In this document: piece after piece, positions 3,169-31,786 of the stretch | Position numbering within the stretch: position 1 is the first letter of the stretch | Layout: every line of letters begins with the position of its first letter | The notes under the pieces: model-generated | Database searches by the model: none | Told to the model about the DNA's origin: nothing | What the model saw: the letters and a program-made list of their open reading frames with translations, nothing else | Translations under genes and position numbers: made by a program | DNA from: Gloeobacterales cyanobacterium | GTDB taxonomy: Bacteria > Cyanobacteriota > Cyanobacteriia > Gloeobacterales > PMM-0068 | Assembly: GCA_038245785.1 (NCBI GenBank) | Contig: JBBRSB010000007.1 | Span: 1 to 64,000 of the forward strand | Direction: 5' to 3' | DNA length: 64,000 nt

Positions 3169-3810
3169 ATGGAAAGTTTCAAACTTATTCTTGAAGGACT
3201 CTATCAGGGAAGGCCACTTTCTTCCTATTCTCCAGGTCAAAGAATTTCTCTTCTAGAAGATGAAGTCTTTATTGTATATCGCGGCATTATTCGGACGCAG
3301 AACTTACAGGAGGAAGGAGAAGAATCTATCTTAGGCTTGGTAGGCCCGATGATGCCCATTTCCTCAAAATTCACTATGCTCAATTCCTATGAGGCTTATG
3401 CCTTAACTGCGGTAGATCTGCTGCGTCTAACGTGGGACGAAGTATTTAACTCTATAGATCTATTAAGAGAGCTAAATCGCGCTTTGATTCAGCGGCTCCT
3501 GCATGCGGAAGTATTGTTAGATTTGAGGAGCAAGCGACAAATCAGCGAACGTTTGATTGCCTTTCTATACTTTTTGGCTCAGGAATATGGTTAACCAACC
3601 TCTAGAGGAATTCGCTTAGACATTCAGCTAACCCATCAACAGATAGCTGATGCTATTAGTACAACATGAGTCACCACTACACGCTTATTGGGAGTACTCA
3701 AGAAAGCCTCAATGATCAAAATTGGCTAAGACCGTACTATCTATATCTTGCCTAGACTATACCGTAATCAAGAATTCAACTTTATCAGCAAACCGCCCGC
3801 AGAGAGTTAG
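3169..3810 (+). pseudogene. Crp/Fnr-family transcriptional regulator pseudogene
   Basis: cNMP-binding-like region, then the frame continues through stops at 3592 (TAA), 3667 (TGA) and 3727 (TAA) as IRLDIQLTHQQIADAISTT*VTTTRLL, a Crp HTH. Confidence 0.85.
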
Positions 3811-3915
3811 GAAGGACGGCGTGGGGCTAGTGTAAAATTTCAGCGTTCTGCTACCAGACTCGACTGCGGATCATAAAAAGAGTGCTGTTACTTAGCGTAC
3901 TGGGTCTGTACTCTT

Positions 3916-4159
3916 CTACTTGACAGAGAATACCTCATCAAACTTGCGCGTGATTGGATCGAGTAAGAAGCTCAAGACTGTTTTCTGTCGCAGAACAATT
4001 TCTCCCGTGGCGGACATTCCAGGGGTCAGAGGTTTGTCTTCGCTGCGTGCCATCATAGACAATTTATTCAATCGAACTCTGGTCGGAAAATTCTTTTCAT
4101 TCTGACCTGGCTGTCCTGCATTTTTTCTTTAGTAACAGCATTGGGGCTAATAACCGTGC
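3916..4159 (-). pseudogene. Displaced, diverged copy of the hlyD 3' end
   Basis: Aligns by eye to about 5987-6238, including the stop codon, with many third-position changes and small deletions. Confidence 0.85.
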
Positions 4160-4415
4160 ATTACTCATCCACTGGGCCTCTTTTTCAGAAGCAGATCAAA
4201 AGTACTTTTTCAATGATCACCAAAGCATAGAGTTTCTAACTAATTAACTTACAACTTGTGGCTCCGGAACAACTTGATGTAATGCCTGTAACAGGGACAA
4301 ATCAGGCAGAGCATGCTAGCATGTGGTCCAAGCAAACGATCTTACTTAGCTTCTACTGTATATAAGCAAAAAGATGGGTAGGGGTGAAGTCTGAAACAAC
4401 AATGAGGAAATCACA

Positions 4416-5861: not shown

Positions 5862-5986
5862 AATTACGGCTAGCCAAGTTGCTTGGCGAGCAGCTCTATC
5901 AGAAAGCATAGGATCGATCGCGGGCAACAATTTCTCCCGTGGTACAGATCACTTTGTCTATCACCAGAGCTGCTATCTCTATTAAT

Positions 5987-7273: not shown

Positions 7274-7445
7274 ATGGAGGACAGACAGGTCATTTGCCCC
7301 AGTTTGGCTCTAGAAGACTGTTTCTACTCCTAACAGTTCTACCTTAGTTGCGCCAGTTAGGATGCATCTAGGATTACATGACGTCTCTCAGACTCTGTCT
7401 CAGAAGCCGTTTCGGGATAGACCCAAACCGTGCTACTTCTAGGGC

Positions 7446-8390
7446 ATGGTAAATCCTTGGATTTTCTTAGCTGCTTGGGTTTTGGACCGCATCGTGGGAG
7501 ATCCGGTGCGTTGGTTGCATCCTGTGCAGGTCATGGGTTGGATGATCAGCCGATGGCGAGATTGGAGTTTTGCGCACCTCAAAGAATCACCTTTACTTCT
7601 TAAGCTATCGGGAATAGCGCTGACTTTGTTGTTGACCTTGGGCAGTGCGGCCTTGGTCTGGGCTGTAATCCTTGGGGCTGGTTTGATTCATCCTTTCTTC
7701 GGCTGGGTAACAGAAGCATTGATTTTAGCCAGTGGTTTGGCGGGTCGTTCTCTAAACGATGCAGCCTGGGCCGTGCTCAAACCGCTGGCAGCCGGAAATC
7801 TTCCTCAAGCCCGTGAGACCTTGGCTATCTATGTCGGGCGGGACACAGAAAACCTGGATTCCTCGGAAGTACTTCGGGCGGTGATAGAAACCGTGGCCGA
7901 GAATACCACTGATGGCGTACTGGCTCCTTTGTTCTGGGCAGTGATTGGCGGCGCTCCCTTAGTCATCGCTTTTAAAGCAGCCAGCACCTTGGATTCGATG
8001 ATTGGCTATCGTCGAGCACTCTACGAGCCTTTTGGTTGGGCGGGAGCCCGTTTGGATGATGTTTTGAACTGGCTTCCGGCTCGATTGATGGCTCTGAGCT
8101 TGGGCGTCCTTACGGGGAAATTAGGAGTCGTAAACAAGATTGTGCAGAGAGACGCTGCCCAAGATCCCAGCCCCAATGCTGGGGTAAGTATGGCTGCTTT
8201 TGCTGCAGTGTTGGGTGTGCGATTAGGAGGAGAGAATAGCTACCGAGGAGAGAAGAAAGTCAAACCGTATTTAGGGGATTCACTTAAGCCACTAACACAG
8301 GACATTGTCTTGCAAACGCTGAAACTTTTAGACCGTTTACAGGTTCTGTGGATAGGAATTGGTTTTATCATGCTTTTACTAAAGCTATAG
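7446..8390 (+). CDS. cbiB: Adenosylcobinamide-phosphate synthase CbiB/CobD
   Basis: GDP..LHPV, VGRDT, ETVAENTTDG, STLDSMIGYR, SPNAG motifs. Confidence 0.93.
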   Translation: MVNPWIFLAAWVLDRIVGDPVRWLHPVQVMGWMISRWRDWSFAHLKESPLLLKLSGIALTLLLTLGSAALVWAVILGAGLIHPFFGWVTEALILASGLAGRSLNDAAWAVLKPLAAGNLPQARETLAIYVGRDTENLDSSEVLRAVIETVAENTTDGVLAPLFWAVIGGAPLVIAFKAASTLDSMIGYRRALYEPFGWAGARLDDVLNWLPARLMALSLGVLTGKLGVVNKIVQRDAAQDPSPNAGVSMAAFAAVLGVRLGGENSYRGEKKVKPYLGDSLKPLTQDIVLQTLKLLDRLQVLWIGIGFIMLLLKL

Positions 8391-8490
8391 CAAAACACAA
8401 TCACTTCGATAATGAAGAATCAGATTTTATCATTAACTATGACATCAAGTATAGGATGGGTACAAATGCTGGGGAGGAGGAATAAAACTA

Positions 8491-8796
8491 ATGAATGGAA
8501 ACATTATCATTCCAAAAGAGAAGATTGCTGATTTCTGCCAGCGGCATCATATTCGTCAATTAGCCTTGTTTGGTTCAGTTCTGAGAGGTGATTTTGGAGC
8601 TGATAGTGACGTTGATATTTTAGTAGAGTTCAAGCCTGGGCATACCCCAGGATTTATCAGTCTCTATGATATGGAAGAAGAACTTTCTAGCTTTTTGGAA
8701 GGTCGCAAAATCGACTTGGTAACAGCCAAGTTTCTCAACCATAGAATTCGGGATAAAGTCTTAGCTGAAGCCGAGGTCCAATATGTCGAAGGATGA
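8491..8796 (+). CDS. Minimal nucleotidyltransferase (MntA-type antitoxin)
   Basis: LFGSVLRGDFGADSDVDILVEF motif. Confidence 0.9.
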   Translation: MNGNIIIPKEKIADFCQRHHIRQLALFGSVLRGDFGADSDVDILVEFKPGHTPGFISLYDMEEELSSFLEGRKIDLVTAKFLNHRIRDKVLAEAEVQYVEG

Positions 8797-9127
8797 CAAA
8801 GATGACCTTGTGTACGTAGGTCATATGCTTGATATAACTCAGAAAGCTTTGTCATTTATTTAGGGTAAAAGTCGGGAAGATTTTGATAATGATGAGATTC
8901 TTCGTCTAGCACTAACACACCTTTTACAGATTATTGGTGAATCAGCTCGTCGTGTTTCTCAAGAATTTCGTGAAGAAAATCCTCAAATTCCCTGGAAGGC
9001 AATTGTCGGGATGCGGATGAAAGTTGTTCATGATTATCTGGACGTTGATGAAGATATTGTCTGGGATACGTTAGCGCAAGAACTTCCAAAATTGCTCAGC
9101 GCTCTGGAGAAAATCCTTCCCTCATAG
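8783..9127 (+). pseudogene. HEPN/DUF86 (HepT-type) toxin with internal stop
   Basis: Overlaps the MNT gene; TAG at 8861-8863; continues LQIIGESARRV...IPWKAIVGMRMKVVHDY (RX4HXY). Confidence 0.85.
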
Positions 9128-9267
9128 AGACTTGGCTATCAGGTTAAGGCCTGATTAGGTGCTGCTAGAACTACAATGTACTCATCCTTTCCTGAAAGTG
9201 CTCCACAAGCCAGAGCATAGCTGATGAAATAGCTGGATGATAGTCCTCTCTTATGGAACTTTGAGAT

Positions 9268-9915
9268 ATGTTCGCCCTCGTCTCGCCTGAAAAAGTTCAG
9301 TTACCGCCAGGAGCCGTCATGCGACTGCCTGCAACTTGGCAAGACTATCAAGCTCTGAGTCAGCAAAGGGGCGATCAGGCCATCCCACGGATTAAGTACC
9401 GCACTGGAGAAGTCTTCCTGATGTCGCCGCTCCCTGAACACGCACGCAATGCACATTTGATTGCCAATGTCGTGACCGTGTTGCTCGATCATCTAGGGCG
9501 AGACTACGAAGCCTTCACTCCAGTCACCATGGAACTCCCAGAAAAGAGTGGAATTGAACCAGACTATTGCTTCTACATTAATAATTGGCAAGCAGTGGCA
9601 GGTAAGAAACGAATCGATTGGAGCATCAATCCTCCACCGGATCTTGTACTTGAAGTTGATGTCACTAGCTATACCAACGTCAATGATTACCTACCCTATC
9701 GAGTTCCTGAAGTTTGGTTACTTAGAGGTGATCAGGTCATTATCTATTGCTTGCACAATGAAGAATATAGCTCTCAAACGAGTAGTCAGTATTTCCCCGA
9801 TGTACATGTACAGGCAGTCGTTGCTGAATGTCTCCATGCTGCTTATGAACGCAATACCAGTGCAGCCATCCGTGAGCTAAGACAGTATTTGGTTAACTCA
9901 ATCAGTCAGCGCTGA
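9268..9915 (+). CDS. Uma2-family endonuclease-like protein
   Basis: MSPLPEH, IEPDYCFYI, PPDLVLEVD, VPEVW. Confidence 0.9.
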   Translation: MFALVSPEKVQLPPGAVMRLPATWQDYQALSQQRGDQAIPRIKYRTGEVFLMSPLPEHARNAHLIANVVTVLLDHLGRDYEAFTPVTMELPEKSGIEPDYCFYINNWQAVAGKKRIDWSINPPPDLVLEVDVTSYTNVNDYLPYRVPEVWLLRGDQVIIYCLHNEEYSSQTSSQYFPDVHVQAVVAECLHAAYERNTSAAIRELRQYLVNSISQR

Positions 9916-9967
9916 CTTCAGATCCTGCCAGAACTACAATATATTCATCCTTCCAATAAGGGATCTC

Positions 9968-10531
9968 ATGAGTCAAACGACCGATCAGGTGCGCTGGACC
10001 TCCGCTGACCTAGAACTGTTTCCAGATGACGGGAACCGTTATGAAATTATTGAGGGAGAACTATTCGTAACCAAGGCTCCTCACTGGAAACACCAAAAAG
10101 CCTGTTCCAGAATCATCTTTGCCTTTGAATCCTGGCATCAAAAAACGGGATTGGGTGAAATAGTACCTGCTCCCGGCATTCTCTTTTCTGATGACAACAA
10201 CGTCATTCCCGATGTTGTCTGGGCTAGCAAAGAACGACTAGCTCTATCCCTAGACGAAGCGGGACATCTCACCTCCGCGCCAGAACTGATTGTAGAAGTC
10301 TTGTCTGCTGGAACGGAAAACGCAAGACGGGACCGAGAGCTAAAACTCAAACTGTACTCGGAACGGGGCGTGCAGGAATATTGGATTATCGATTGGTGCA
10401 AGCCCCAGCTTGAAATTTATCGCCGCACCCAGGCCACCCTGAAACTCGTTGCGACCTTGCTTCCCAACGATGAACTAAGCAGTCCCTTATTACCCGGTTT
10501 TACCTATCCAGTGTCCCAATTATTCGCTTGA
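9968..10531 (+). CDS. Uma2-family endonuclease-like protein
   Basis: RYEIIEGEL, PDVVW, PELIVEVLS, KLYSERGVQEYWIID. Confidence 0.92.
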   Translation: MSQTTDQVRWTSADLELFPDDGNRYEIIEGELFVTKAPHWKHQKACSRIIFAFESWHQKTGLGEIVPAPGILFSDDNNVIPDVVWASKERLALSLDEAGHLTSAPELIVEVLSAGTENARRDRELKLKLYSERGVQEYWIIDWCKPQLEIYRRTQATLKLVATLLPNDELSSPLLPGFTYPVSQLFA

Positions 10532-10664
10532 GGTCTTATGGGGTAGTGATTGGCACGTTTCGGTCAATAATTCCCAGGCGACCTTGAGCGCACTTGACCG
10601 TATTTGAATTCTTGAGCCAGACTGAGAATATAAAGTGTACGTACTAAGTTACGCGGGAGTCTCT

Positions 10665-12161
10665 ATGGAACATGCTCCCTTGAAATGCCTGAACTATATC
10701 AACGGTCAGTGGTTACCTGCTCAATCAGCCTCTACCCTGGAACGATATAACCCTGCGGATCGGCGGGAACTGGTGGCGACTTTCCCGCATTCCAGTGCAG
10801 CAGATGTGGATGAGGCCGTTCAGGCTGCGCGTCAAGCCTATAGAAACTGGCGACTGGTCCCTGCTCCAGCCCGTGCCGAATATGTACAGCGGATGGGAGC
10901 CTTGCTCCTACAGCGTAAAGAAGAATTGGCCTATCTCATGAGTCGGGAGATGGGTAAACCCTTGCTCGAAACCCGTGGCGATGTGCAAGAAGGGATTGAT
11001 TGTGCCCTCTATAGCGCGGGAGAAGGCCGTCGCTTATTCGGTCAAACAACGCCTTCGGAAATGCACAACAAGTTTGCGATGACCCTGCGGATGCCTATTG
11101 GGGTATGTGCCCTGATTACCCCCTGGAATTTTCCAATCGCCATACCCTGCTGGAAAGCATTCCCAGCCCTAGTTTGCGGCAATACGATTATTCTCAAACC
11201 CGCTGAAGACACCTCGGCCTGTGCCACGCTGCTATTTCAAATCTTCGAAGAGGCTGGATTACCCGCAGGCGTCGTCAATTTGGTCTATGGTCCAGGAGAA
11301 GAAGTTGGTCAGGCGCTGGTCGAACATCCTGGAGTGGATCTTGTTTCCTTCACAGGGTCTTCTGCCGTTGGCGCGCAGGTGGGAGCTATCTGTGGGCGCA
11401 CGCATAAGCGAGTGTGCTTAGAGATGGGAGGCAAAAATGCCCAAGTAGTGATGGAAGATGCGGACCTGGAACTGGCCCTAGAAGGAGCGCTCTGGGGAGC
11501 TTTTGGCACCACGGGCCAGCGCTGTACCGCTACCAGCCGCTTGATTCTCCACAGCCAGATCAAAGCCCCTTTTACCGAAATGCTTGTAGAACGGACCCAA
11601 AAGTTACGGCTTGGACCGGGCATCGCTCCCCACACGGATATCGGTCCTTTAGTGAGCCAAAAGCAACTCCAACGGGTGAGCGACTATCTTAAAATTGCCC
11701 GTCATGAAGGGGCGAAAGTCCTGATTGGAGGAAAGGTAGCCAGTCAGGAAGAACTCAAACATGGTTATTTCTTCCAGCCTACTATCCTTGACCATGTCCA
11801 GCCTGATAGCCGGATTGCCCGTGAAGAAATTTTTGGGCCCGTGGTCGCTTTGCTGGAAGTGCATTCCTTTGAAGAAGCAATTGCGGTCCTAAACGATACG
11901 CCCTATGGTCTGTCTTCTTCGGTCTATACCCGTGATGTGAATCGGGCGTTCCAGGCAATGCGCGACATTGAAGCCGGGATTACCTATATCAATGGCCCAA
12001 CGATCGGAGCAGAAGTGCATTTGCCCTTCGGTGGAGTTAAGCAAACAGGGAATGGTCATCGGGAAGCAGGGAGTACGGCCCTGGATATTTTTACAGAGTG
12101 GAAAACAGTCTATGTAGACTTTTCGGGCCACTTGCAACGCGCTCAAATTGATAACCGTTAG
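10665..12161 (+). CDS. NAD(P)-dependent aldehyde dehydrogenase
   Basis: ITPWNFP, FTGS, LEMGGKN, catalytic GQRCTA, EEIFGPV; GGAG upstream of ATG 10665. Confidence 0.95.
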
Positions 12162-21778: not shown

Positions 21779-22035
21779 CTAGTGTCCCGTAGTTATCATT
21801 CTCAGCAAGGAATATTGCATCACCTCAGCAGCGTTGAACAATGCTTCCTCTTTCGTTTCACCCTCAGTAAAGGTATCAGGGAGGTCAACAAAAGTTACTA
21901 AAAAGCTTCTATCGGCCTGCATATCAATAATTGCTGGGCATTTAATTTCCATAATGTACCTCACTTAAGTTTGGCACTGGTCTGCCTCCGAATAGCGGAA
22001 ATCAAACCCTACCCGAGATCGCGTGTACCGTGAAA
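21779..22035 (-). pseudogene. Truncated hicB plus hicA 3' remnant (paralog of 27607-28100)
   Basis: FVDLPDTFTEGETKEEALFNAAEV then divergence; upstream HGTRDLG*GLISAIRRQT. Confidence 0.8.
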
Positions 22036-22092
22036 ATGTGTATTGACTGTCCGGCGCATGCGCTGGCTAGACATGAGTTTAGCCGCTATTAC

Positions 22093-22620
22093 TTAAGCAA
22101 TTAGAGCCTTAATATTTTCTTGGAAATTTGGCTCCACCTTTTGCCACCTCTTAGCACTATTAACGTCCATGTTAGTTTTGGCAATCTCTATTAGTGCATC
22201 ATCAATCGAATACGTTTTGGCTTCTCTCAACCAGATTAATATTTCTGCTAAGTGCCAAATAGAAGGGGTGCCCTCATAAACAGGAAGTGGAGATCTTGGC
22301 TCATTGGTTACGATCAGCTTCCTGATATTTTGTCGGGTGCATCCAAGAATTTTGGCTACATCTGTTAAACCAACAAAATCTGGTGTAGCTTCAATCAAAG
22401 TAGCATTTGGAATAACTCTTTTAACGTTAGCAATAGCGCTAGAAACAGCTTCATAAGCCGATGATGCTTCACGAATAAAGTTTAGTGAAATATATCCTTT
22501 CCTTCCAACTCCAATTAAGGCATCGTCACAACCGCCTTCATGCAGTTTCTCAACATAAATATCAGGATTATCTTGAGAATTTTGGAGATTAAACTTTAAG
22601 GTAAAATCATACTCTTTCAT
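22093..22620 (-). CDS. HicB-like/HTH DNA-binding protein (putative antitoxin)
   Basis: GCDDALIGVG..G...L.F.REA, PDFVGLTDVAKILGCTRQNIRKL HTH. Confidence 0.7.
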   Translation of the reverse strand: MKEYDFTLKFNLQNSQDNPDIYVEKLHEGGCDDALIGVGRKGYISLNFIREASSAYEAVSSAIANVKRVIPNATLIEATPDFVGLTDVAKILGCTRQNIRKLIVTNEPRSPLPVYEGTPSIWHLAEILIWLREAKTYSIDDALIEIAKTNMDVNSAKRWQKVEPNFQENIKALIA

Positions 22621-22623
22621 TGA

Positions 22624-22896
22624 TCATTCCTCCTCTTCGCTAGAATCATCCGCAACGTTATACCTTGTACAGTTATCAACTATTCGGCGAATCTGCTTCG
22701 CATGATTTCCTGCATTTTTAGGGGTACTCCACACACTAGATATACAAAAATTTCCACATCTACACTCTTTATCGTTGTAAGGGCAATAGAGCTTACCCCA
22801 AGCATGCGAGCCACCAACATCTACACGCCAGCCATTTTGCTCGGCATACTTTAACGCAGCTTCAATCTCTTGTTTTGGGTGAGATCGTCTTCCCAT
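22624..22896 (-). CDS. Cys-rich HicA-like putative toxin
   Basis: GWRV..GGSHAWGKLYCP...CRCG.FC..SVWSTPKN; 3 bp upstream of its partner. Confidence 0.6.
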   Translation of the reverse strand: MGRRSHPKQEIEAALKYAEQNGWRVDVGGSHAWGKLYCPYNDKECRCGNFCISSVWSTPKNAGNHAKQIRRIVDNCTRYNVADDSSEEEE

Positions 22897-23091
22897 AACA
22901 ACCTTTATTTATACAAACTAGACCCAAAACGATTGGTTGTCAAGTGACAACTGCCCGTACAGGCATATTCAGTGTCTATAGTTTTATGCCATCTAAAAAT
23001 GCCGTTCACATGTTGCTAACAGCTAATCACCTCTACAGCATACTAGGCAGACAGCCTCGACCTATACTACCCATATCTAATGAACCGAAGA

Positions 23092-23178
23092 ACTGAACCT
23101 AAGTGCGGACCCAGACGTCTAGAGACATATCAAGTTAATTCAGACATTTTCCTATTCTGGCTGAGCAAACTGTTATGA
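23092..23178 (-). repeat. attC-like site, family A
   Basis: Minus strand: TCATAAC-5nt-GCTCAGCC...GGGTCCGC-6nt-GTTCAGT. Confidence 0.65.
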
Positions 23179-23273
23179 GCTTTTACACAATCTCACGCAT
23201 TATTGTGCTGCTGGCGCAATTGCATATAGTACTGCTACAGAAAAGATTGTGCGATTCAAGCAATTGATTCACA

Positions 23274-23645
23274 TTACTCTGGCTTCCAAACAATTTGAGA
23301 TTGCCTTGCAAGCGAGCCTGCCAATCGTTCCGCCTCGGCTAGATCATCTTCTCGATACGGTAATCCTACGACATTGGCATGATTCACAGAATCCTGTTCC
23401 ACATCCAAGCCAACCTCGCGCACACCCCTGACTTCAAGACTGGCAACTCAATAACACTTGCGAAACAGTTCTGCACACTGCTTTGGAGAACATACATTTG
23501 CTAGGTTCACTGAAAGCCCACGCTCGTTGACTCGTAGAAAATAGGCATCTGCCTTCACTCTTCCTGTATCCTCATTAATCCATTGTTTCCGAAGCAGTGC
23601 TCGATAGACGATGGCATTGTCTGAAAGGGGATCAAACTACCTCAT
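23274..23645 (-). pseudogene. Hypothetical protein with ART-like motif order and two in-frame stops
   Basis: MR*FDPL...IVYRA...AYFLR..ERGLSV...KCY*VASL...NHANVVGLP; stops at 23637-39 and 23448-50. Confidence 0.65.
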
Positions 23646-24034
23646 GCTTGATTCAACCATTCCAACCACTGCAAGAGGGTAGAGACTGTTATCTCTCGTT
23701 CTACCGCATAATTGTTTCCTAGCTCGTGGTATAGGTAGGCTTGCTGGTCAGCACGAGCAGGACAAAGCAGCCGGACTTCGCATTCTGGCTCTAGCTTGCT
23801 TCATGTCAGTCGAATACTGCCTTCCTTATCCGTGGAAATCGATGCTCTTGGAAAGCGCTCGCCCATTGCATCGTAGGCTTCCACAACAAATCCCATCGCC
23901 AACTTAAATGCAACCTGACTCGGTTGTAAAACTCCATACTCACCCGTCTCATCCTCTTCTAAGAGAGCAACGAGGCGTTTCAAAGTCACCGTAATCGGGC
24001 TACTGGATGGTCTAGCCGATTGAGCAATAGTCAT
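23642..24034 (-). pseudogene. Hypothetical partner protein with one in-frame stop
   Basis: Frame continues past TGA 23801-03 to LQWLEWLNQA*, ending in an ATGA overlap with the next gene. Confidence 0.7.
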
Positions 24035-24099
24035 AAACTCAAGGAAATTCAAGAGGTAAGCTAACAACGAGCTTAACATAAGCAATAAGGCAGATTGCA

Positions 24100-24222
24100 G
24101 GAGGGGACAAGTTGATCATAAAAATCAAACATAGAGCAACATTGAAACTAAATGAATTTTAATTCCATTTCCCTATAGATAATCTTGCAGACACACCCCC
24201 AATAATAACCTAGCAAGCTAAC
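24100..24222. repeat. Repeat family C (second copy 29060-29172)
   Basis: Shared AAAATCAAACATAGAGCAACATTG...AGATAA...CAAGCTAAC; homology ends at GCTAAC. Confidence 0.85.
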
Positions 24223-24283
24223 ACCCTGACTGACCGTGATAATCAGAGTGACTCACTTGTCACAGTCAATCCAACTGTTATTT
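24216..24283 (-). repeat. attC-like site after the NACHT gene
   Basis: Minus strand: AAATAAC...TGACTGTGACAA...TTATCACGGTCA...GTTAGCT imperfect hairpin, 8 bp after the stop codon. Confidence 0.7.
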
Positions 24284-24291
24284 CTCGAATT

Positions 24292-26034
24292 TTAAAGAGC
24301 TACTAAGTTAATTATATCTCCATCACTCTTATCAATATCATCTATCTGTAAAGTCAAGCGTTCAATTAATTGTTGACCAACATTTTTGTATGCAATCACC
24401 TTTAACTTAATCTCACCCATTGGAAGTGTAGACAGAATATGAAGAAATGTAGATTCTTCAAGTTCATTGTCCGAAAGAATAGGCATCGACAGTTTCTCTA
24501 AAATGATTTTTTCAAATAGGTCACTGCAACTACAGTCTTTCATCAAAACTCTAGATATGAGAAAAACTTTCATATAAGTTAGGTATGCTAAGTTATCAGT
24601 TAAGTCAGTGGTGCCCAATACTGTAACTAATTTTGAACTAAGATCCTGTAATAGGGGGATAGTTAGCAACTTATGGAAATTCTTATAATCCAATTCTGCT
24701 AACAAACTAAAGAAGTGATCTTTTTCTAACAAAGCCTGGTAGCCCTTCAAGATTTGATCAACAAGTTTTTTATAAATTGTATGCTTATTTTCAGAACTTA
24801 ATTTCTCAACATAGCATGCAGCAAAGTATTCTTGCAGAGATCTGTGAGGAAAAGTATAATCAAGCCCTTCCTTATTAAGAATACCAATTGCAACTTGCAT
24901 GTCTTCAATCAGCTTATCATTGTCAAAGGTAAATTTTTGTTTTCTATTTTTAATTTCGTTGAATTTCATATTTATATACTGAGAAGTAAAAATGTATTCT
25001 TGTTCGAAAAAAGAAATATAAGAAAATATTCTTAGAATCTCTTCAAAAAGTTCTTTGGTTAATCCGCTTTGTTTTTCTCTTACATATGCCATTTTTGACA
25101 TGCTATCGTGAAGTGAAAACAGAGCGTTAAAAACTTGATTATAAAATTCACTTCTCCTTTGTGGAATTGCAGAATAGGTTTGGAATGTCAAAATAAACAT
25201 AGAAAGCAGCAGAGGATTGCTTAGGAACGTTTTATAATTCGAGTTTTCTCTCTTTGCGATTGCAGACGTTATTTTATCTGCTAATTCAGTTTCTTCTTTC
25301 GGTATTTGTTTTTTCACAAAATCGTTGATTTCATTATTTTCTAAGTCACATATAAAATAATTTTTGAAAGTTGACATCATTTCTATGTTTGTATTTGGCC
25401 TCGACGTGATCAAATAATAGTTCTGCGCATATCGATTCACAAAAATATCTATCTCGTTGGTTAGACTTTGTTTCTTTGTTGAATTGATTTCATCATATCC
25501 ATCAAAAAAGAAAAGGAAATTATCTGATTCAAACATCCTTTCTATAATGGCATCAGTAAATCCGATTTTGTTAAATTTTACAATTTCATTTACTATGTAA
25601 GACTTCAAACTTCCAGAATAATCATTTAAATAACGAAGTTCTACTCTAACAGGAATTTTGAATCCTTCAATAAAGCATCTTGTGATTAAGTATTTGACCA
25701 AAGTGCTTTTACCACTACCTGCAAAACCTATTAGGGTAATTTGTTTTTCTTTTGAAAACAGCTTAGAGACCAATTTTGTAGTTTTTCTTGTGTTTCTATT
25801 CCTTGCGTCAACTTCACGAATAAATAGTGGCTGATAAAATTCTTCAAGGCTTTTTGGTTCTGATCTATGAAGAATTGTTTTTGAAAAACGATTTCGCTTA
25901 TACTCTGATTCTTGATATTCAGATATCCGACTAAGGAAAACTTGTTTCAACTCAGAACCGATAAACTGCAATAAGCTATTTATCGACCCCTTCAAGGCAT
26001 CTTTGAGATCGACGATATCTAGTCCGTCAGTCAT
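24292..26034 (-). CDS. NACHT-domain (STAND) NTPase, candidate anti-phage gene
   Basis: GFAGSGKS, FFFDGYDE, ITSRP, NPLLL, FPHRSLQEYFAA; markedly AT-rich. Confidence 0.88.
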   Translation of the reverse strand: MTDGLDIVDLKDALKGSINSLLQFIGSELKQVFLSRISEYQESEYKRNRFSKTILHRSEPKSLEEFYQPLFIREVDARNRNTRKTTKLVSKLFSKEKQITLIGFAGSGKSTLVKYLITRCFIEGFKIPVRVELRYLNDYSGSLKSYIVNEIVKFNKIGFTDAIIERMFESDNFLFFFDGYDEINSTKKQSLTNEIDIFVNRYAQNYYLITSRPNTNIEMMSTFKNYFICDLENNEINDFVKKQIPKEETELADKITSAIAKRENSNYKTFLSNPLLLSMFILTFQTYSAIPQRRSEFYNQVFNALFSLHDSMSKMAYVREKQSGLTKELFEEILRIFSYISFFEQEYIFTSQYINMKFNEIKNRKQKFTFDNDKLIEDMQVAIGILNKEGLDYTFPHRSLQEYFAACYVEKLSSENKHTIYKKLVDQILKGYQALLEKDHFFSLLAELDYKNFHKLLTIPLLQDLSSKLVTVLGTTDLTDNLAYLTYMKVFLISRVLMKDCSCSDLFEKIILEKLSMPILSDNELEESTFLHILSTLPMGEIKLKVIAYKNVGQQLIERLTLQIDDIDKSDGDIINLVAL

Positions 26035-26058
26035 TTATTATCTCCTCGTCTTCCGTAA

Positions 26059-26148
26059 ATTTAACTATTTATTAGACTGACTTTTTCTTTCTAACTACCC
26101 AGTTTGGAGATCTTAGGCTGAAAAAGTCTGCCTGATCACCCGTACAGC
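26059..26148 (-). repeat. attC-like site, family B (other copies 30225-30314, partial about 23020-23045)
   Basis: Minus strand: GCTGTAC-5nt-ATCAGGCA GACTTTTTC...GAAAAAGTC AGTCTAAT-5nt-GTTAAAT. Confidence 0.65.
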
Positions 26149-26210
26149 ATACTAGGCCGATAAACCTTGCGTATACTACCACTTAAGAGAATTAGATGCC
26201 GTCTTGGAGG

Positions 26211-27227
26211 TCAAGGGGTAATACTCAAATAATTAGGGTCAAAGGGCTTCCCAGACTTGAGGACCCCAAAGATGAGATGGGCTAGTTTCCGCATCGCTGC
26301 CACAATCACCTGCATCTTGTTCTTCCCTTTGCTCAACAGCCGCTCACAAAAGGTCTTGATGGGGGGATTGAACCGTTGAGACACCATGGCTGGCATATAT
26401 AGTGCTTTGCGCAAGCGACCATTGCCGGTTCGAGAAATTCGGCTTCGCCCGCGCACTGAAGTACCAGAGGTCTTTTCCTGGGGAGTCAATCCCATATAAG
26501 CAGCAAGTTGTTTGGCATCCACAAATGCATCCCAGGACTGCACCTCAGCCAAAATAACGGATGCGGTAACCCTTCGGCAGGGCTCAGGGGCCACTTCACC
26601 AATTCCAGGAATGCTCCTCAGCAAGTCCTCCTGCTTGAGGCCAGGATGTTGGTCAAAGTGGTCGCGGATAAGTTGTTTGGTTTTCTGGATGTCTTGCTCC
26701 AAGTAGTCCAGATGTTCCTTTATCAGGGTCGCCACCTGCTCGGTGGAAACGGCTAGGCGGTTGTTTTCTTGCTGGCGCATGGCATTCAACGCCTCTAGGC
26801 GGCGGACTAAAGCCTGTAGATGCTTGACCTCGGGGGCAGAGGGCGTCCAAGGCGCAGGCCGCAGGGCAGCACAAAACCGAGCAATGAGGGCGGCATCCAC
26901 CTGGTCATTTTTGGTACGAAGCAGTTCACTTCTGGCAAATCCGTGGCCCCTGAGCCCTGCCGAAGGGAGGACACGAGCTGGATTGACCATGCTCACGGTG
27001 TGGTTGGCTTGGTAGAGCACTTCGGCCACGGCGTCTCCATAGACCCCCGTAGCTTCTAAGCAGGCATGAACGGGACTCACCTGATGGTGATTCAACCAAA
27101 TCAGTAATTCTTGATGCCCCTCTGGAGTATTGGGTATGACTTTGGGTTTGGATTTGCCGTTGGGCAACAGCAAGGCAATATGCAGTTTACTCTTACCCAC
27201 ATCGATGCCAAGGACAGGTTGGGACAT
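26211..27227 (-). CDS. IS110 DEDD recombinase
   Basis: GIDVGK, LEATG, KNDQVDA, SIPGIG, KTSGTS, AAMRKL; two 24-nt in-frame insertions. Confidence 0.93.
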   Translation of the reverse strand: MSQPVLGIDVGKSKLHIALLLPNGKSKPKVIPNTPEGHQELLIWLNHHQVSPVHACLEATGVYGDAVAEVLYQANHTVSMVNPARVLPSAGLRGHGFARSELLRTKNDQVDAALIARFCAALRPAPWTPSAPEVKHLQALVRRLEALNAMRQQENNRLAVSTEQVATLIKEHLDYLEQDIQKTKQLIRDHFDQHPGLKQEDLLRSIPGIGEVAPEPCRRVTASVILAEVQSWDAFVDAKQLAAYMGLTPQEKTSGTSVRGRSRISRTGNGRLRKALYMPAMVSQRFNPPIKTFCERLLSKGKNKMQVIVAAMRKLAHLIFGVLKSGKPFDPNYLSITP

Positions 27228-27264
27228 GGTGAACATCTCCTCTCTTGGGTTCATTAGGCAGACT

Positions 27265-27470
27265 GGGCCCACAACTACCCTTATGAATGCAGGCTCACCC
27301 ATGCTCTGGGGGCCTAAGATGCCGTTCAGCTTGGGAGGACCAATCAATCAAGGCAGAAGGGACTTATCTAATCAACAGGCTCATCGCCTAGGCAGACAAA
27401 CAGCCTCACTTCTGCTTCCTACTTCCTCTGTAGGAAATAGACCTGGAACCAGTATTACCTGGTTACCCGG
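27265..27470 (-). ncRNA. IS110 bridge RNA (boundaries approximate)
   Basis: Guides match this element's own junctions: TTGTCTGCCT (27390-99) and GATTAG (27368-73) for the target; ACGGCATCT (27317-25) and ATAAG (27280-84) for the donor. Confidence 0.85.
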
Positions 27471-27516
27471 TTAACGCTCAAGATACAAGGCAGACAACCT
27501 CGGTCTATATTCCAGT

Positions 27517-27604
27517 GCATAACGGAGGATTTGCACAAAGACTAGTAGAAGCCTAAGATCTATCACTCTGATGTTGCATTTCGTCACTGTGCCCTTAGTC
27601 CAGC
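27517..27604 (-). repeat. attC-like site after hicB (partial relative at 30389-30440)
   Basis: Minus strand: GCTGGAC...GCACAGTGAC...GTCTTTGTGC...GTTATGC. Confidence 0.5.
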
Positions 27605-27606
27605 AA

Positions 27607-28023
27607 CTATTCAAGCGTGAGCACCAAGCGCTTGCCAAGAGCCGCTGCCGCCCGATCAAGGGTTTTAAGCGATGGCCAGTGAGAGGGATTCTCAAGCCTC
27701 TTTGCTGAGGGCCACGAGGTTTCCAACGCCCTGGCAAGATCAGACAAGCTTCGCTCTCCTCGCGCCAGACGTAGCAGCATGGCAGCCTGTGTCTTGGCGT
27801 CAGGTGCTACATAATAAGCGCCTTGCACCCTCTGGCTTGGGGCGGAAATATCCTTCGCCTGATCAATCCGCCAAGCCAGCATTGACGACAACACCTCGAC
27901 TGCGTTAAACAATGCTTCCTCTATCGTTTCACCCTCAGTAAAGGTATCAGGGAGATCAACGAAAGTTACAAAAAAGCTTCCATCGGGCTGCTGGTCTATG
28001 ATTGCTGGGTATTTAATTTCCAT
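27607..28023 (-). CDS. hicB: HicB-family antitoxin with C-terminal HTH
   Basis: FVDLPDTFTEGETIEEA; SLSDLARALETSWPSAKRLEN..HWPSLKTL. Confidence 0.88.
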   Translation of the reverse strand: MEIKYPAIIDQQPDGSFFVTFVDLPDTFTEGETIEEALFNAVEVLSSMLAWRIDQAKDISAPSQRVQGAYYVAPDAKTQAAMLLRLARGERSLSDLARALETSWPSAKRLENPSHWPSLKTLDRAAAALGKRLVLTLE

Positions 28024-28031
28024 AATGCACC

Positions 28032-28100
28032 TCAATTAAGTTTGACACCTGTCTGCTTCTGAATAGCGGAGAGCAAACTCTGCCCAAGGTCGCGTGTACC
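28032..28100 (-). pseudogene. hicA 3' remnant
   Basis: GTRDLGQSLLSAIQKQTGVKLN*; 5' part absent. Confidence 0.7.
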
Positions 28101-28197
28101 AATATATCTTTAATGATATATCAAAAATAGTTAATCTTCATCGCCGTGGGGAAGACTACGTTGGGCTTCTCCATGCTCAGGACTATCAGGCTAGGGA

Positions 28198-28284
28198 ATT
28201 GAACCGAAGGGCTTACCCAGACGTCTGGAGACATGTTTGTTTGATTCAGACATTTTCCTATTCCGGTTGAGCGAGCCGTTATGA
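28198..28284 (-). repeat. attC-like site, family A
   Basis: Minus strand: TCATAAC-5nt-GCTCAACCGGA...TCTGGGTAAGC-6nt-GTTCAAT. Confidence 0.7.
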
Positions 28285-28334
28285 GTTCTTACACAGTCTT
28301 GTGTCTTGTCTGGTGTCCGGCAATTGCAACTAGC

Positions 28335-28763
28335 TTATTCCGAGACTATAGCTTTTGGGCTAATCTCAAGCTGTAATTGTGAACGGTAGAAACAAACATT
28401 GAACTCCATGAAAAAGTTCACTTGTCCTAAAATAAGCGGCACATTTTTAGCTTGTGTCCACGCAAAAACCAGTTTTACAGGCTCAAACTGACCGACTAAG
28501 GCTTGAACAACCACAACACGCGCTTCGTACTGAGCTAAGTTTCCTGTCAAACTCAGTGCTGTTGTTTGCTGTTCCCAGTTATACCCAAGCTCAACTCCCA
28601 CCAAATACGGAAGCACATTTACGCTTGCTCCAGTGTCCAGTAAACCAGATGCTGTAACAGAAGCTTGCTGATGAACCAGAGTAAGGGGCAAGAATGGACG
28701 AAAACTAGCTTCACCTAATGCAGCACCACTAGAGATGAATGAATATCGTTCAGAGTTACGCAT
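28335..28763 (-). CDS. Retropepsin-like (clan AA) aspartic protease
   Basis: LLDTGASVNVLP catalytic motif and PLILGQ..FF..F. Confidence 0.8.
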   Translation of the reverse strand: MRNSERYSFISSGAALGEASFRPFLPLTLVHQQASVTASGLLDTGASVNVLPYLVGVELGYNWEQQTTALSLTGNLAQYEARVVVVQALVGQFEPVKLVFAWTQAKNVPLILGQVNFFMEFNVCFYRSQLQLEISPKAIVSE

Positions 28764-28971
28764 GGTCTTGATTTTTAGCAGCTTGTAGCACTTTTAACAT
28801 GGTATCGGCTGCTTCAACCGCGTCATAGGGCGACCACACTGGATAAGATTGGTCAGGTTTAATTAAATTCGTTTCTTGTTGAGCTAGTCCCGAGATTAAA
28901 ACTTGCATGACATAGAATTTCTCTTCACGACTCAGCCCCTGCAATGTCGAGATTAGTTCTGGTGAAACCAT
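28756..28971 (-). CDS. Small hypothetical partner protein (antitoxin-like)
   Basis: LSREEKFYVMQVL..., YPVWSPYD; overlaps the protease start. Confidence 0.75.
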   Translation of the reverse strand: MVSPELISTLQGLSREEKFYVMQVLISGLAQQETNLIKPDQSYPVWSPYDAVEAADTMLKVLQAAKNQDHA

Positions 28972-29165
28972 GCAAAGCACTCCATGTTGGCTAGGTTGCC
29001 CTATCTATTCTAATTGACCTAGAGATTATCTATCAATATCACCGCAAATGAGATAGTAGAAGGAGCAAATTGTTCATAAAATCAAACATAGAGCAACATT
29101 GGAACTTAAACAAATTTCACCTCAATTTCCCCACAGATAACCTTGTGTACCCACACCAATAGCCA

Positions 29166-29208
29166 AGCTAACTTTCGACGTGAGGCGAGGACCGACGGAG
29201 GGGTTAGG
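29166..29208 (-). repeat. Short (probably internally deleted) attC containing the DUF4365 stop codon
   Basis: Minus strand: ACCTAAC CCTCCGTC...GCCTCACGTCGAAA GTTAGCT; the TAA stop lies within the RYYYAAC box. Confidence 0.75.
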
Positions 29209-30205
29209 TGTCATGCTTGATGTTGAGCAAGTCCATAACTGCGAATGTGATTCGTTTATTCTCTTCGATGCTCATACCAAGCGAGTCTGTCATTGCATTC
29301 AGTCTTGGCCGGTTCTTCACAAGCACATCGAGTATCCGCTTGAGATCGACCGTTATGTCTACTTTTCCGTGCACCTTTGGCTTTCCATTGGTTCGCTTTG
29401 CACGGCACAGGCAGAAAAAATATGTCCGAAGCCCGTACGAACTTGATTGAGTGTTGCAGAAAAAGAACCAGTGCTCAATCAATTGGTCGGCGATTTTGAA
29501 CCACTTTCTGACTCGGGGGATTTCCCAGAGTTCACGCGGATCGTTGTGATAGCCAGCTACGCTAAGTTCTATCCGTCCCTGGAACTTCCTACTTAGTGCC
29601 TCGTTTGACACAATTCGCTGAAAGAATGTAGATAACGGCAATGGGTCAAGGCTCTCGATATCACTTCGATCTATAGCGTAGTAGATAGATTCAAAGGTGG
29701 CTAATGTTTCATTGAAAGACCAATGAGCTTGAAGTGCATCGGAATGGTCGACAGCAGGGCCAACTATTTCTAGAAAATCACTTTTCGTACCGAGTGATAG
29801 TTTGTTCTTCTTCGGGACTGAAATCTTCCAACCAGTGGAAGTCCTCTCAGTTTTTGCGCCCTCAAAACGCACCCAGTAGGATGCCTTGCATTCTGGGTTG
29901 TGGATCAGCAAGATGATGGGAACGGCCGAGTTCAGATAATAATTTAGATGTTTTGTCTCACCATAGTAAGTGAAGCTGGAGGGCGTCTCCGTTGAGAAAT
30001 AAGATGCTCCACTCTTGATTTGTATCGCTAGAGTTTGACCCGTCACTCCTCCATTTTCAGTAACGACATCGATTCCGAAGTTGTATTCCGTGTGGTTGCG
30101 TCTGAATATCCAGCCAAAAACATCATTAACAATCTGAGAAACTGCGTTAACTCCGGCATCGCCGCTACGGGCTGTCTTGGAATATAACGGAAACGGCTGG
30201 CTCAT
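29204..30205 (-). CDS. DUF4365-type PD-(D/E)XK nuclease with DUF1817-like C-terminus
   Basis: FGID...AIQIKSG.SYF, HLNYY; GYHNDPRELWEIPRVRKWF. Confidence 0.75.
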   Translation of the reverse strand: MSQPFPLYSKTARSGDAGVNAVSQIVNDVFGWIFRRNHTEYNFGIDVVTENGGVTGQTLAIQIKSGASYFSTETPSSFTYYGETKHLNYYLNSAVPIILLIHNPECKASYWVRFEGAKTERTSTGWKISVPKKNKLSLGTKSDFLEIVGPAVDHSDALQAHWSFNETLATFESIYYAIDRSDIESLDPLPLSTFFQRIVSNEALSRKFQGRIELSVAGYHNDPRELWEIPRVRKWFKIADQLIEHWFFFCNTQSSSYGLRTYFFCLCRAKRTNGKPKVHGKVDITVDLKRILDVLVKNRPRLNAMTDSLGMSIEENKRITFAVMDLLNIKHDT

Positions 30206-30224
30206 GAGAGTAAGTGTTGATGAT

Positions 30225-30486
30225 ACATAAATATTTATTAGATTGACTTTCTCTGTCTACCCACCCAATTTAGGGATCTTAAGCTAAAGAAGTCGTTATA
30301 ATCACCTGCACAGCAGGCTAGGCAGTCAAGTTCACCTTATGGTACCCACTAAGAGGATTAGACAGACGACCTCAATGTAAATTCCAGTGGATAACGGAGG
30401 ATCTGCTCAGGATTTGGCTATTAGCATGGCTGAGTTTACGGAATTGAACCGAAGGGCTTACTCAGACGTCTGAGTAACTATCAATC
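30225..30486 (-). repeat. ORF-less stack of attC-like repeats including an empty IS110-like site
   Basis: Family B copy 30225-30314, CGTCTGT-CT-AATCC at 30355-30368, partial family A copy from 30443 with palindrome TTACTCAGACGTCTGAGTAA. Confidence 0.7.
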
Positions 30487-30499
30487 ACATAAACCATGC

Positions 30500-31786
30500 A
30501 TGGATGCCTTCACCCAAAAAGCGCATTTCTTTCGCCGGGCCAGCTTTGGAGCCACGCAGCAAGAGTTAGGCAGTAGTGTCAAACCGATAGAGCTACTGGA
30601 GCAGTGGTTGCAAGATAAACAACCCGTTACGAATCTGCTCAGCAAGGAAAGGCCAGAGTCCGAACCTCTTGGGATGACGGAAACGGATAAAAAGTTCAAA
30701 AGAATGCAATTGCGTGCCCAGGGAATCGCTCTTGGTCAGGCCCTCTTAGAACAGATGGTTACGGCGTCCAACCCGCTGCATGAAAAAGTAGTGAACTTTT
30801 GGCGAGACCATTTTGTAGTCTCAGCAAAGAAGTTTAATCTGCCTCATTTTATCGCTGATTATGATCTACGTTTACGGACCCACGCACTGGGAGACTTTCA
30901 GGACTTACTTTGGTCTGTGACGACGAGTCCAGCGATGTTGCGCTATCTGGATAATGGACAAAATCGAGTCGGTAATCCTAACGAGAACTATAGTCGGGAA
31001 TTACTTGAACTATTCACGCTCGGTCGCGGCCAATACACTGAGCAAGATATTCAAGAAGGGGCACGAGCTTTAACGGGATGGGTGACGAATCCTCTGGATT
31101 ATGGGAAGAAAACAGAAGCAATTTTTATACCTCGTCGTCATGATAGTGGACTGAAAAACTACCTGGGGCGACAGGGAAATTTGAAGGCTGAGGATGTCGT
31201 TGAAATTGTCAGTAATCATCCGAGTACCGCCCGCACTTTAGCACGCAAGCTATGGAGTGAATTTGTTTATCCGAATCCAGAGCCTGCCGTTATTCAGCGT
31301 TTAGCCAAGGTCTATCAAAGAAAAAATCGAAATATCCAAGCACTGATTCATGCAATTTTTACCAGTCCCGAATTCTATAGCGCCAAAGCCTATCGTAGCC
31401 GTTTAAAGAATCCCCTCTATTTCACGATTGGGGCTTTGAGACAGTTAGAAATTCAAGCAGACTATCGAAAGGTCTTAGCCAGCCTGAAAGCAATGGAACA
31501 GTTACCCTATAACGCTCTCAGCGTCAAAGGCTGGCCTGAAGATGAAGGTTGGCTCAATGCCCCGTCTTTACTGACACGCATCAATCTTGCCCAGCAATTT
31601 ACCCAGGATTCCGGCGATGAGGGTAGGTTTGTTTACGAACCCGAGAAATTTCCACCCAAAGAACTGACAGCTCTACTGCTAGACAGTTCTACTATTTCAG
31701 CGAATCTGCGCACTACGCTCAAAGGACTTTCTAACCGTGAAAGTGCGGCCTTTTTGCTTGCTTCTCCCCTTTATCAATTGGCTTAA
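30500..31786 (+). CDS. DUF1800 protein
   Basis: FWRDHF, PAMLRYLDN, PNENYSRELLELFTLG, ARALTGW. Confidence 0.9.
   Translation: MDAFTQKAHFFRRASFGATQQELGSSVKPIELLEQWLQDKQPVTNLLSKERPESEPLGMTETDKKFKRMQLRAQGIALGQALLEQMVTASNPLHEKVVNFWRDHFVVSAKKFNLPHFIADYDLRLRTHALGDFQDLLWSVTTSPAMLRYLDNGQNRVGNPNENYSRELLELFTLGRGQYTEQDIQEGARALTGWVTNPLDYGKKTEAIFIPRRHDSGLKNYLGRQGNLKAEDVVEIVSNHPSTARTLARKLWSEFVYPNPEPAVIQRLAKVYQRKNRNIQALIHAIFTSPEFYSAKAYRSRLKNPLYFTIGALRQLEIQADYRKVLASLKAMEQLPYNALSVKGWPEDEGWLNAPSLLTRINLAQQFTQDSGDEGRFVYEPEKFPPKELTALLLDSSTISANLRTTLKGLSNRESAAFLLASPLYQLA

Follow-up and report, generated by a model that had tools for sequence, protein, structure and literature searches.

Thousands of bridge RNAs have already been described for the IS110 family of insertion sequences (ISs), and for the IS1111-attC group seekRNA has reportedly been shown by Siddiquee et al. 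in 2024. The IS110 group is marked by a long left end and a short right end (PMC11208160; PMC11187229). In IS621 of Escherichia coli, the bridge RNA's target-binding loop carries a left target guide (LTG), which has the sense of the left target half plus core, and a right target guide (RTG), which is complementary to the core plus the right target half (Durrant et al., 2024, PMC11208160). The donor-binding loop is built like the target-binding loop, with a left donor guide (LDG) as well as a right donor guide (RDG), the latter pairing discontiguously (PMC11208160). An RTG match of 4-7 nt has been described for the family (PMC11208160). The handshake positions are defined in the structure paper (Hiraizumi et al., 2024, PMC11208158), which also names the catalytic residues of the IS621 recombinase as D11, E60, D102, D105 and S241-G242. 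In the IS1111-attC members ISKpn4 and ISPst6, a guide RNA targets the attC sites of integrons (PMC11187229, citing Tetu and Holmes, 2008, and Post and Hall, 2009). The present analysis concerns a stretch of 64,000 nt from a Gloeobacterales cyanobacterium (contig JBBRSB010000007.1, hereafter the window), in which the minus strand between 27487 and 26194 very probably holds a full-length IS110-group insertion sequence of IS621-type layout, with a bridge RNA and a target repeat that appears to be linked to an integron. Elements of this kind are already well known, and as far as sequence can define an IS621-type element, all of its defining features are present here.

The element and its predicted bridge RNA

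The element spans 27487..26194 (minus strand; 1,294 nt) and is complete, both of its ends being set by an empty paralogous site. It starts with TGTATCTTGAG at 27487 and ends in ...GACGGCATCT. The left flank closes with ...TTGTCTGC-CT (27497-27488, minus strand), which comprises the left target half and the CT core. The right end closes with ...ACGGCAT-CT (26202-26194, minus strand), the left donor half plus core, and is followed by the flank AATTC, the right target half, at 26193-26189. An uninterrupted paralogue on contig C3 of the same assembly, at about 223073, reads ccgaggttgtctgcct followed directly by aatcctcttaagtggtagtatacgc and is continuous with both window flanks, including the left target half; in the longer reading, ccgaggttgtctgcct followed by aatcctcttaagtgg..., both flanks are joined through a single CT. 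Because the two window flanks, merged at a single CT, reproduce this empty paralogue, the ends of the element are fixed to the base. Comparison of the window flanks with the C3 paralogue reveals no duplication beyond the shared core, as befits a scarless insertion. The donor ACGGCAT-CT-TGTAT and the target TGTCTGC-CT-AATTC that had been read from the window in an initial annotation are correct by the sequence and by this paralogue. The non-coding left end, which would encode the bridge RNA, measures 260 nt (27228..27487, minus strand) and the right end 17 nt after the stop codon, and long subterminal inverted repeats are absent, as in the IS110 group.

The left end is predicted to encode a bridge RNA with target-binding and donor-binding internal loops, all on the minus strand. 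The target-binding loop is enclosed by an outer helix (5' arm GCAGAAG at 27409..27415, 3' arm CTTCTGC at 27353..27359) and contains the LTG TTTGTCTGCCT (27390..27400), which shares an identical stretch of 10 nt with the left flank, the inner hairpin AGGC-GATGA-GCCT (27377..27389) and the RTG TTGATTAG (27368..27375). The RTG is the reverse complement of CT-AATCAA, and the two bases that follow it, AU, form the handshake position. The donor-binding loop with its outer helix (AAGCTG at 27332-27327 with GTAGTTG at 27278-27272) occupies 27272..27332 and contains the LDG ACGGCATCT (27317..27325), identical to the right end at 26202-26194, an inner hairpin (27290..27316) and the RDG TTCATAAG (27280..27287), whose AUAAG can pair with CTTGT of the donor if one U:G wobble is counted. 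In the window copy, the RDG is followed by G, which would act as handshake base opposite the C at target position 7. The guides match their partners at 10/10 positions for the LTG, 5/7 for the RTG, 9/9 for the LDG and 5/5, including the wobble, for the RDG, and the placement of all four agrees with that given for IS621 in PMC11208160. Only two occurrences of TTGTCTGCCT exist in the 64-kb window, the flank and the guide. With up to one mismatch, GTCTGYCTAATC occurs 4 times, compared with 0.51 expected, and none of 100 shuffles reaches 4.

Several results weigh against a structured RNA at this position. An Rfam search of 26000-27700 returned no fitting family, its sole match being sR46 at an E-value of 8. 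The unconstrained fold of the single sequence had a z-score of -2.43, with 5 of 200 shuffles folding as well, and in it one target guide pairs with the other. RNAalifold, applied to the full-length left-end alignment of the relatives described below, gave two hairpins only, with 7 pairs. Rfam 15 is taken to hold no fitting bridge-RNA model, so that the null result does not count against the RNA. Because the single-sequence fold was unconvincing and Rfam was without a matching model, relatives of the element were brought in. Of 401 genomes of the same class that were searched, 43 contained a homologue of the recombinase at E <= 1e-40, the best with 68% identity. The start of the left end could be placed in 21 elements, including that of the window, and the right end was found in 19. 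The left-end alignment comprises 19 elements (L027 and L037 left out) and the MAFFT helix alignment 12, which further lacks L034, L038, L042, L043, L044, L050 and L052, all of those omitted being near-duplicates or length outliers. Nine distant related loci from other phyla (32-50% identity) were not used.

The guides of the relatives follow the flanks and ends of their own elements. On average, 8.0 of the 9 positions of the LTG 9-mer agree with the left flank of the same element (n = 21; 9 positions in nine elements, 8 in seven, 7 in three and 5 in two), compared with 4.6 when the flanks of the other loci are used (420 comparisons); the two elements that reach just 5/9 against their own flank count against the rule. 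On the donor side, the 7 nt that precede CT at the right end are identical to the LDG of the same element in 17/19 cases, with four different 7-mers in use; the left donor half is ACGGCAT in the window element and ACAGTAT in 11/19 cyanobacterial relatives. In the relatives, the RTG match extends from CT into the right flank by 2 to 5 bases, in agreement with the length described for the family. The handshake positions behave as expected, the base after the RTG pairing with donor position 7 in 20/21 elements and the base after the RDG pairing with target position 7 in 18/21. The core is CT in 20/21 elements, the TGTAT start is common to all 21 with a placed left end and invariant in the 19 aligned, and the RDG reads ACAAG in 18/20 relatives, GCAAG in 2/20 and ATAAG in the window only.

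Since RNAalifold gave only 7 pairs, the helices were taken from constrained folds; once named, they were tested on the separate MAFFT alignment of 12 sequences, which was fitted to no structure. Over the four helices that bound the loops, 84.3% of cells are paired, compared with 71.6 +/- 1.3 in shuffled alignments, none of 500 of which reaches the observed value; helix partners slid out of register pair at 23-55%. Compensatory changes are found in 20 of 25 pairs. They affect 10/12 pairs in the outer helix of the target-binding loop (helix 1), 3/4 in its inner hairpin (helix 2; 89.6% paired), 4/5 in the outer helix of the donor-binding loop (helix 3; 91.7%) and 3/4 in its inner hairpin (helix 4; 97.9%). 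The helices bounding both loops thus pair and covary, and the guides therefore lie in internal loops. The four guides, the CT core and the IS621-type layout proposed in the initial annotation are in this way borne out by the sequence, the guides of the relatives and the covarying helices, and the guides lie in internal loops, the opposite of what it had named as refuting the proposal.

The two ends also carry what resembles a promoter divided between them. A -10-like hexamer, TATCTT (27480..27485, minus strand), lies in the left end, and a -35-like hexamer, TTGACC (26209..26214, minus strand), lies in the right end, where it contains the TGA stop codon of the recombinase gene; both are pattern matches. 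Joining of the ends gives TTGACC, 17 nt and TATCTT, an agreement with 9/12 consensus positions that is a pattern match only, and a junction-spanning pattern of this kind is found in 17/19 elements with both ends. The earlier suggestion that circularization creates this arrangement holds as a statement about sequence pattern. In the integrated form, no promoter-like site was found upstream of the left end. In the contigs of four sequencing runs there was no joint corresponding to the circle junction or to the empty window site, and contigs cannot show rare forms. By analogy with IS621, the element would excise scarlessly as a circle, an RNA made from the junction promoter would bridge the circle junction and a matching genomic site, and the recombinase would exchange strands at the CT core.

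The left end also contains a target-like 14-mer, AGTCTGC-CT-AATGA (27251-27264, minus strand), located between the donor-binding loop and the ribosome-binding site. Its fit to the guides is as good as that of the occupied site, 2 of its bases differ in variant copies of the element, and it has no counterpart in the relatives.

The recombinase and other copies of the element

The gene that follows the left end (27227..26214, stop codon 26213..26211, minus strand) is predicted to encode a DEDD/serine recombinase of 338 amino acids (aa). Both IS110 domains are present, PF01548 at 1.9e-20 and PF02371 at 1.2e-23, and the IS621 recombinase chain (PDB 8wt6_A) is matched at an E-value of 6.6e-73 with its catalytic positions aligned. 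The DEDD residues D9, E58, D108 and D111 align with D11, E60, D102 and D105 of IS621, and the serine motif S254-G255 aligns with S241-G242. All of these residues are invariant among eight cyanobacterial homologues.

Two in-frame insertions of 24 nt interrupt this gene in the window copy. Insertion 1 (26946..26969, minus strand) adds LPSAGLRG after NPARV in the RuvC-like domain, and insertion 2 (26571..26594, minus strand) adds VAPEPCRR after SIPGIGE in the Tnp domain. Insertion 2 is the reverse complement of insertion 1, the two being 100% complementary over 25 nt. They are members of a small dispersed repeat whose 19-mer core is found 15 times in the genome when up to 3 mismatches are allowed. 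This repeat is about 24 nt long (CCCTTCG[GA]CAnnGCTCAGGGGCCAC); examples lie at G000:C47:16372-16399 and at C21:~31760, and two copies in opposite orientation lie in the recombinase gene. Among the X1 contigs examined, none spans the two insertion sites without the insertions. Small dispersed repeats of cyanobacteria were reportedly treated by Elhai et al. in Genome Research in 2008, as units of about 21-27 nt within mobile elements and genes; the two 24-nt insertions have the look of such units.

Further copies of the element are present in the same assembly, where element ends were found on four other contig ends (C53, C9, C52 and C2). The structure of the surrounding repeat pairs these ends into two additional copies. 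The copy formed by C53 and C9 lies at ...TCTCTGT-CT-AATCA... and that formed by C52 and C2 at ...AGTCTGT-CT-AATCA.... The joining of C2 and C52 across the IS is inferred from repeat structure alone, which is a weakness of the integron link described below. The left ends on C9 and C52 carry the LTG TTTGTCTGTCT (...TGTCT), and their sites read ...TGT-CT. Relative to the window copy, this is a change of C to T, the window LTG TTTGTCTGCCT reading ...TGCCT and its site ...TGC-CT. All three copies therefore agree with their own sites at the C/T position. That the guide changes together with the site across three copies in one genome is suggestive and falls short of proof.

The right flank CT-AATCA was found on C53 and C2, as well as once in X3 and twice in X7. 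X3 and X7 are contigs from the metagenomes of two other studies, which hold elements of approximately 95% identity. At 27283, within the RDG, the window has T and the variant copies of X1, X3 and X7 have C. Less favorable to the guide reading is that the handshake base in the donor-binding loop of these variant copies is C, opposite a T at target position 7 with which it does not pair. The initial annotation had regarded insertion of other copies at unrelated sites as evidence against its proposal; the sites observed, nGTCTGT-CT-AATCA and TCTCTGT-CT-AATCA, are related ones. Its description of the element as a natural reprogrammed variant applies only in the ordinary sense that every IS110 lineage has its own guides.

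The target repeat, its probable integron setting and competing explanations

The guides are set for nGTCTG(C/T)-CT-AATCA, and this motif is present in both orientations within a species-specific repeat of about 200 nt. All three occupied sites lie in this one repeat, site A in one orientation and sites B and C in the opposite one. An nhmmer search recovered 16 pieces at E < 1e-3, which correspond to 15 repeat copies on 12 contigs; four of these were the seeds and three are in the window. Among 14 genomes of the order, the repeat was found solely in the source genome. Good matches to the 14-mer target are few: a census gave 3 + 1 sites at up to 1 mismatch and 29-30 occurrences at up to 2 mismatches, compared with about 32 expected. 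Because the latter count is at the level of chance, only the sites with up to 1 mismatch are informative.

In the window, the remainder of the interrupted repeat lies at 26062..26193 (minus strand) and ends ...AGTCAGTCTAATAAATA, followed by GTTAAAT, before a NACHT gene. A second, uninterrupted copy (30258..30406, minus strand; E = 3.2e-44) contains the empty site CGTCTGT-CT-AATCC at 30368-30355, and a partial third copy (23022..23074, minus strand; E = 1e-06), which represents the middle part of the repeat, contains TGTCTGC-CT at 23053-23045. Both the empty-like site and the left-half match near 23044 that had been noticed earlier thus fall within copies of this repeat, and the proposal that the target motif recurs is confirmed by the 15 copies. 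The repeat was also described as part of a host cassette array. This is borne out only in part, the repeat of about 200 nt being dispersed and apparently linked to an integron, and the window containing one convincing attC-like hairpin and no canonical dense attC array. An Rfam search of three repeat-bearing loci gave noise only (CRISPR-DR9 at an E-value of 0.42), and single-stranded DNA folds of three repeat copies showed no common hairpin, only C53 pairing site A with site B.

The association with an integron rests on the two contigs that flank one of the additional IS copies. An intact integron integrase gene lies at C2:301-1263 (locus L060). It scores 480 bits against TIGR02249, compared with a cut-off of 265, and also carries PF00589 and PF13495; it is the sole match above the cut-off in the source genome, and none of 14 control genomes passes it. 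The gene adjoins a repeat copy at C2:146-267 and the right end of the IS at C2:1-148. On C52, which seems to continue the sequence across the IS, the repeat ends ...TAATAAATA, directly followed by GTTAGGC, a nucleotidyltransferase gene and attC-like hairpins at 807-917 (-46 kcal/mol), 1251-1307 and 2213-2299. The repeat fills the exact gap between the intI start codon and the GTTAGGC of the first cassette. Of 10 repeat copies in unit context, picked by eye, 8 lose homology at the GTT core (...TAATAAATA followed by GTT...), with unrelated DNA thereafter, and 6 fit GTTRRRY. The genes after the repeat copies differ and run in the same direction; they include NACHT, DUF4365, GmrSD/HEPN and CBS/FRG genes. 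Because the repeat forms the spacer between intI and the first cassette and elsewhere precedes genes resembling those of defence and toxin-antitoxin systems, it is most likely an integron recombination-site region, of the attI or attC kind.

Other traces of integrons were observed in this genome and in a related one. The region C52:200-2420 (locus L058) holds at least 3 cassettes, with the nucleotidyltransferase, an open reading frame of 105 aa and an HTH/Clp_N protein. Fragments matching the integrase model, some with stop codons, occur at C8:134271-134843, C52:10763-10861 and C9:394-528 and may represent decayed integron platforms; the last two are short N-terminal fragments of intI, that on C52 being near a weak repeat copy. 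In G151, a complete genome of the same order (L065 = G151:C1:154000-173999, ~3600-12000), an IntI homologue with 43% identity is followed by an array whose attC sites start GCC(C/T)AAC, end GTTAGGC and are spaced 0.6-0.9 kb apart. This is an ordinary array beside IntI and shows that the group does contain integrons; PMC4889954 likewise mentions integrons of cyanobacteria.

Within the window, the region 21800-30500 is a one-directional block of small toxin-antitoxin- or defence-like genes, comprising two HicB-like genes and genes for DUF5615, a NACHT NTPase, Asp_protease_2 and DUF4365, separated by several families of repeated intergenic blocks. Directly after the NACHT stop codon, at 24216-24283 (minus strand), lies an attC-like imperfect palindrome of 68 nt, AAATAAC...GTTAGCT, and a shorter stretch, ACCTAAC...GTTAGCT, follows the DUF4365 gene near 29165-29207. 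A duplication of 212 nt (21818-22029 and 27889-28100) covers the start of the two hicB-like genes. One repeated block, found at 28192-28227, 30437-30472 and 23086-23121, consists of the palindrome CCAGACGTCTGG and a T-arm-like GGTTCAATTCC. The idea that the blocks at 28192-28227 and 30437-30472 are tRNA fragments was dropped, ARAGORN finding no tRNA in 15000-40000.

Different parts of this account are open to different explanations. Coincidence, or copying from the flank, might have produced the guide-like matches in a left end that is just a 5' untranslated region, with the protein choosing the site. That no Rfam family matches the left end agrees with this, but the 260 nt contain exact matches of 10 nt and of 9 nt, independent of each other, for which about 2e-4 and 1e-3 would be expected, and they fall in the same alignment columns in which 20 relatives match their own, different flanks and ends. 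The helices covary, moreover, and the mechanism is experimentally established for the homologue matched at 6.6e-73; this explanation is very unlikely. A substantial possibility, if not a probable one, is that the architecture is right and the window copy is a dead relic, only other copies of the family being active. Because of its insertions, its RDG wobble and its mismatched right flank, the window copy is the most derived of at least three. Both insertions are missing from 11/11 aligned relatives, from IS621 and from the X3 and X7 elements; the first is within the RuvC-like domain and the second comes directly after the conserved PGIGE of the Tnp domain, and both are modelled at a predicted local distance difference test (pLDDT) value below 50. 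The ATAAG of the RDG, with its U:G wobble, is unique among the 21 elements, the right flank AATTC departs from the guide-predicted AATCA and from the AATCC of the empty paralogous sites, and, over the first 134-142 nt of the left end, identity to the other two copies is no more than 91-93%. The insertions, the wobble and the flank mismatch also weigh against the IS621-type reading itself. On the other hand, the frame of 338 codons is intact, the DEDD and Ser-Gly positions are all kept, and the AlphaFold model (8-sequence alignment; mean pLDDT 79.4) places the insertions between predicted secondary-structure elements of a fold that is otherwise confident and intact. The wobble still pairs. In addition, the LTG and the handshake base fit the copy's own C-bearing site, which indicates that the guides were coherent at the time of insertion.

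The reading of the target repeat is also contested. Several observations weigh against an integron role. The repeat is dispersed, with its copies spread over many contigs and not gathered into a single dense array. Its length of about 200 nt exceeds that of usual attC sites, and its inner motifs are AAT/ATT and not the canonical core AAC/GTT. The crude home-made attC scan was unspecific in its relaxed form, control regions being hit just as often (4-10 hits per strand), and in the window it disclosed the one convincing hairpin at 24216-24283 and no canonical attC array. A strict version of the scan was set aside as too strict, having missed obvious sites in G151. Because of the length and dispersal of the repeat, its AAT/ATT motifs, the unspecific scan and the single hairpin, the link between the target repeat and the integron is held to be fairly probable and not more. 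The repeat could instead be an ordinary dispersed repeat, like repetitive extragenic palindromic (REP) sequences or miniature inverted-repeat transposable elements, that lacks integron function, lies beside intI by chance and is targeted by the IS in the manner of REP sequences. Copies standing singly on many contigs (C1 twice, C5, C12, C18, C25, C30 and C40), inverted ends (TAGGCTGCAAA...TTTGCAGCCTA), the long hairpin fold in C53 and the lack of a canonical attC array in the window would all suit a repeat of this type, and the targeting of REP sequences is a textbook habit of the family (PMC11208160). Such a repeat would not, however, be expected to fit exactly between the intI start codon and GTTAGGC, to lose homology at the GTT core in 8/10 copies before different genes in the same direction, or to have the intI fragments of C52 and C9 for company, and this alternative is possible and rather doubtful. 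The integron-linked reading can be carried further. The guides may be set for a core-like GYCTAAT/ATTAGRC, present in both orientations inside an attI-like platform repeat of a chromosomal integron in this relative of Gloeobacter, so that the element would represent a second, independent lineage of integron-parasitizing, RNA-guided ISs next to the IS1111-attC group. The roughly 15 solo repeats, located before defence and toxin-antitoxin genes, would then form an integron of many sites on which one IntI acts in trans, and the C/T change, matched by the sites of the sister copies, would be a natural retargeting within a single genome. Taken as a whole, this extended version is unlikely.

Relation to known systems

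The closest described element is IS621 (PMC11208160; PMC11208158). The window element has the same two-domain recombinase, the same CT core and the same combination of a long left end with a right end of 17 nt. Its predicted bridge RNA, likewise upstream of the gene, has the same two loops, the same order and strandedness of guides and the same handshake positions. It also shares a promoter-like pattern split across the predicted circle junction and the habit of using a repeated host sequence as target. The guides and target differ, being nGTCTG(C/T)-CT-AATCA with the left donor half ACGGCAT, as does the host, an early-branching cyanobacterium. Whereas IS621 targets a REP element, the target here is a repeat that appears to be linked to an integron. 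The window copy furthermore has the two insertions of 8 aa and the RDG wobble.

The significance of the element lies in points of modest interest, namely the covariation of guide and site within one genome, the loop insertions, the possible integron-platform target and the unexplained 14-mer at 27264-27251. The locus illustrates that, where the layout of an IS110 element is known, one copy suffices for reading its target and its donor, which is useful and no longer new. For the engineering of bridge recombinases, it supplies a naturally occurring element whose donor half, ACGGCAT, is non-standard and whose RDG contains a U:G wobble that is either tolerated or decaying, and the two loop insertions mark spots at which the recombinase may accept additional residues.

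Among other IS110-family elements, ISPpu9 and ISPpu10 of Pseudomonas putida (PMC12288879; bioRxiv 10.64898/2026.03.19.712850) are alike in that their copies all lie in one intergenic repeat. Their targets are REP-type repeats of a proteobacterium, and the abstracts report no integron link. A literature search found no case of an IS110-type element targeting integron sites; the supplementary catalogues of PMC11208160, which lay outside that search, may list the lineage.

The closest parallel in target choice is the IS1111-attC group, which resembles the window element in its DEDD recombinase, its short guide RNA and its insertion at one place and in one orientation within integron recombination sites, the site being a presumed one for the window element (PMC11187229). 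IS1111-attC elements carry their guide RNA downstream of the gene, together with 11-13 bp subterminal inverted repeats (PMC11187229); the window element, by contrast, has its guide upstream, a right end of 17 nt and no such repeats, and does not belong to the IS1111 family. The targets differ as well, that of the IS1111-attC group being one end of a canonical attC and that of the window element a motif inside a 200-nt repeat with a presumed integron role. If this repeat is indeed a site for IntI, IS110-type elements, and not just those of the IS1111-attC group, could split an integron platform from its cassettes, as the IS copy that lies between intI and the first cassette would exemplify.

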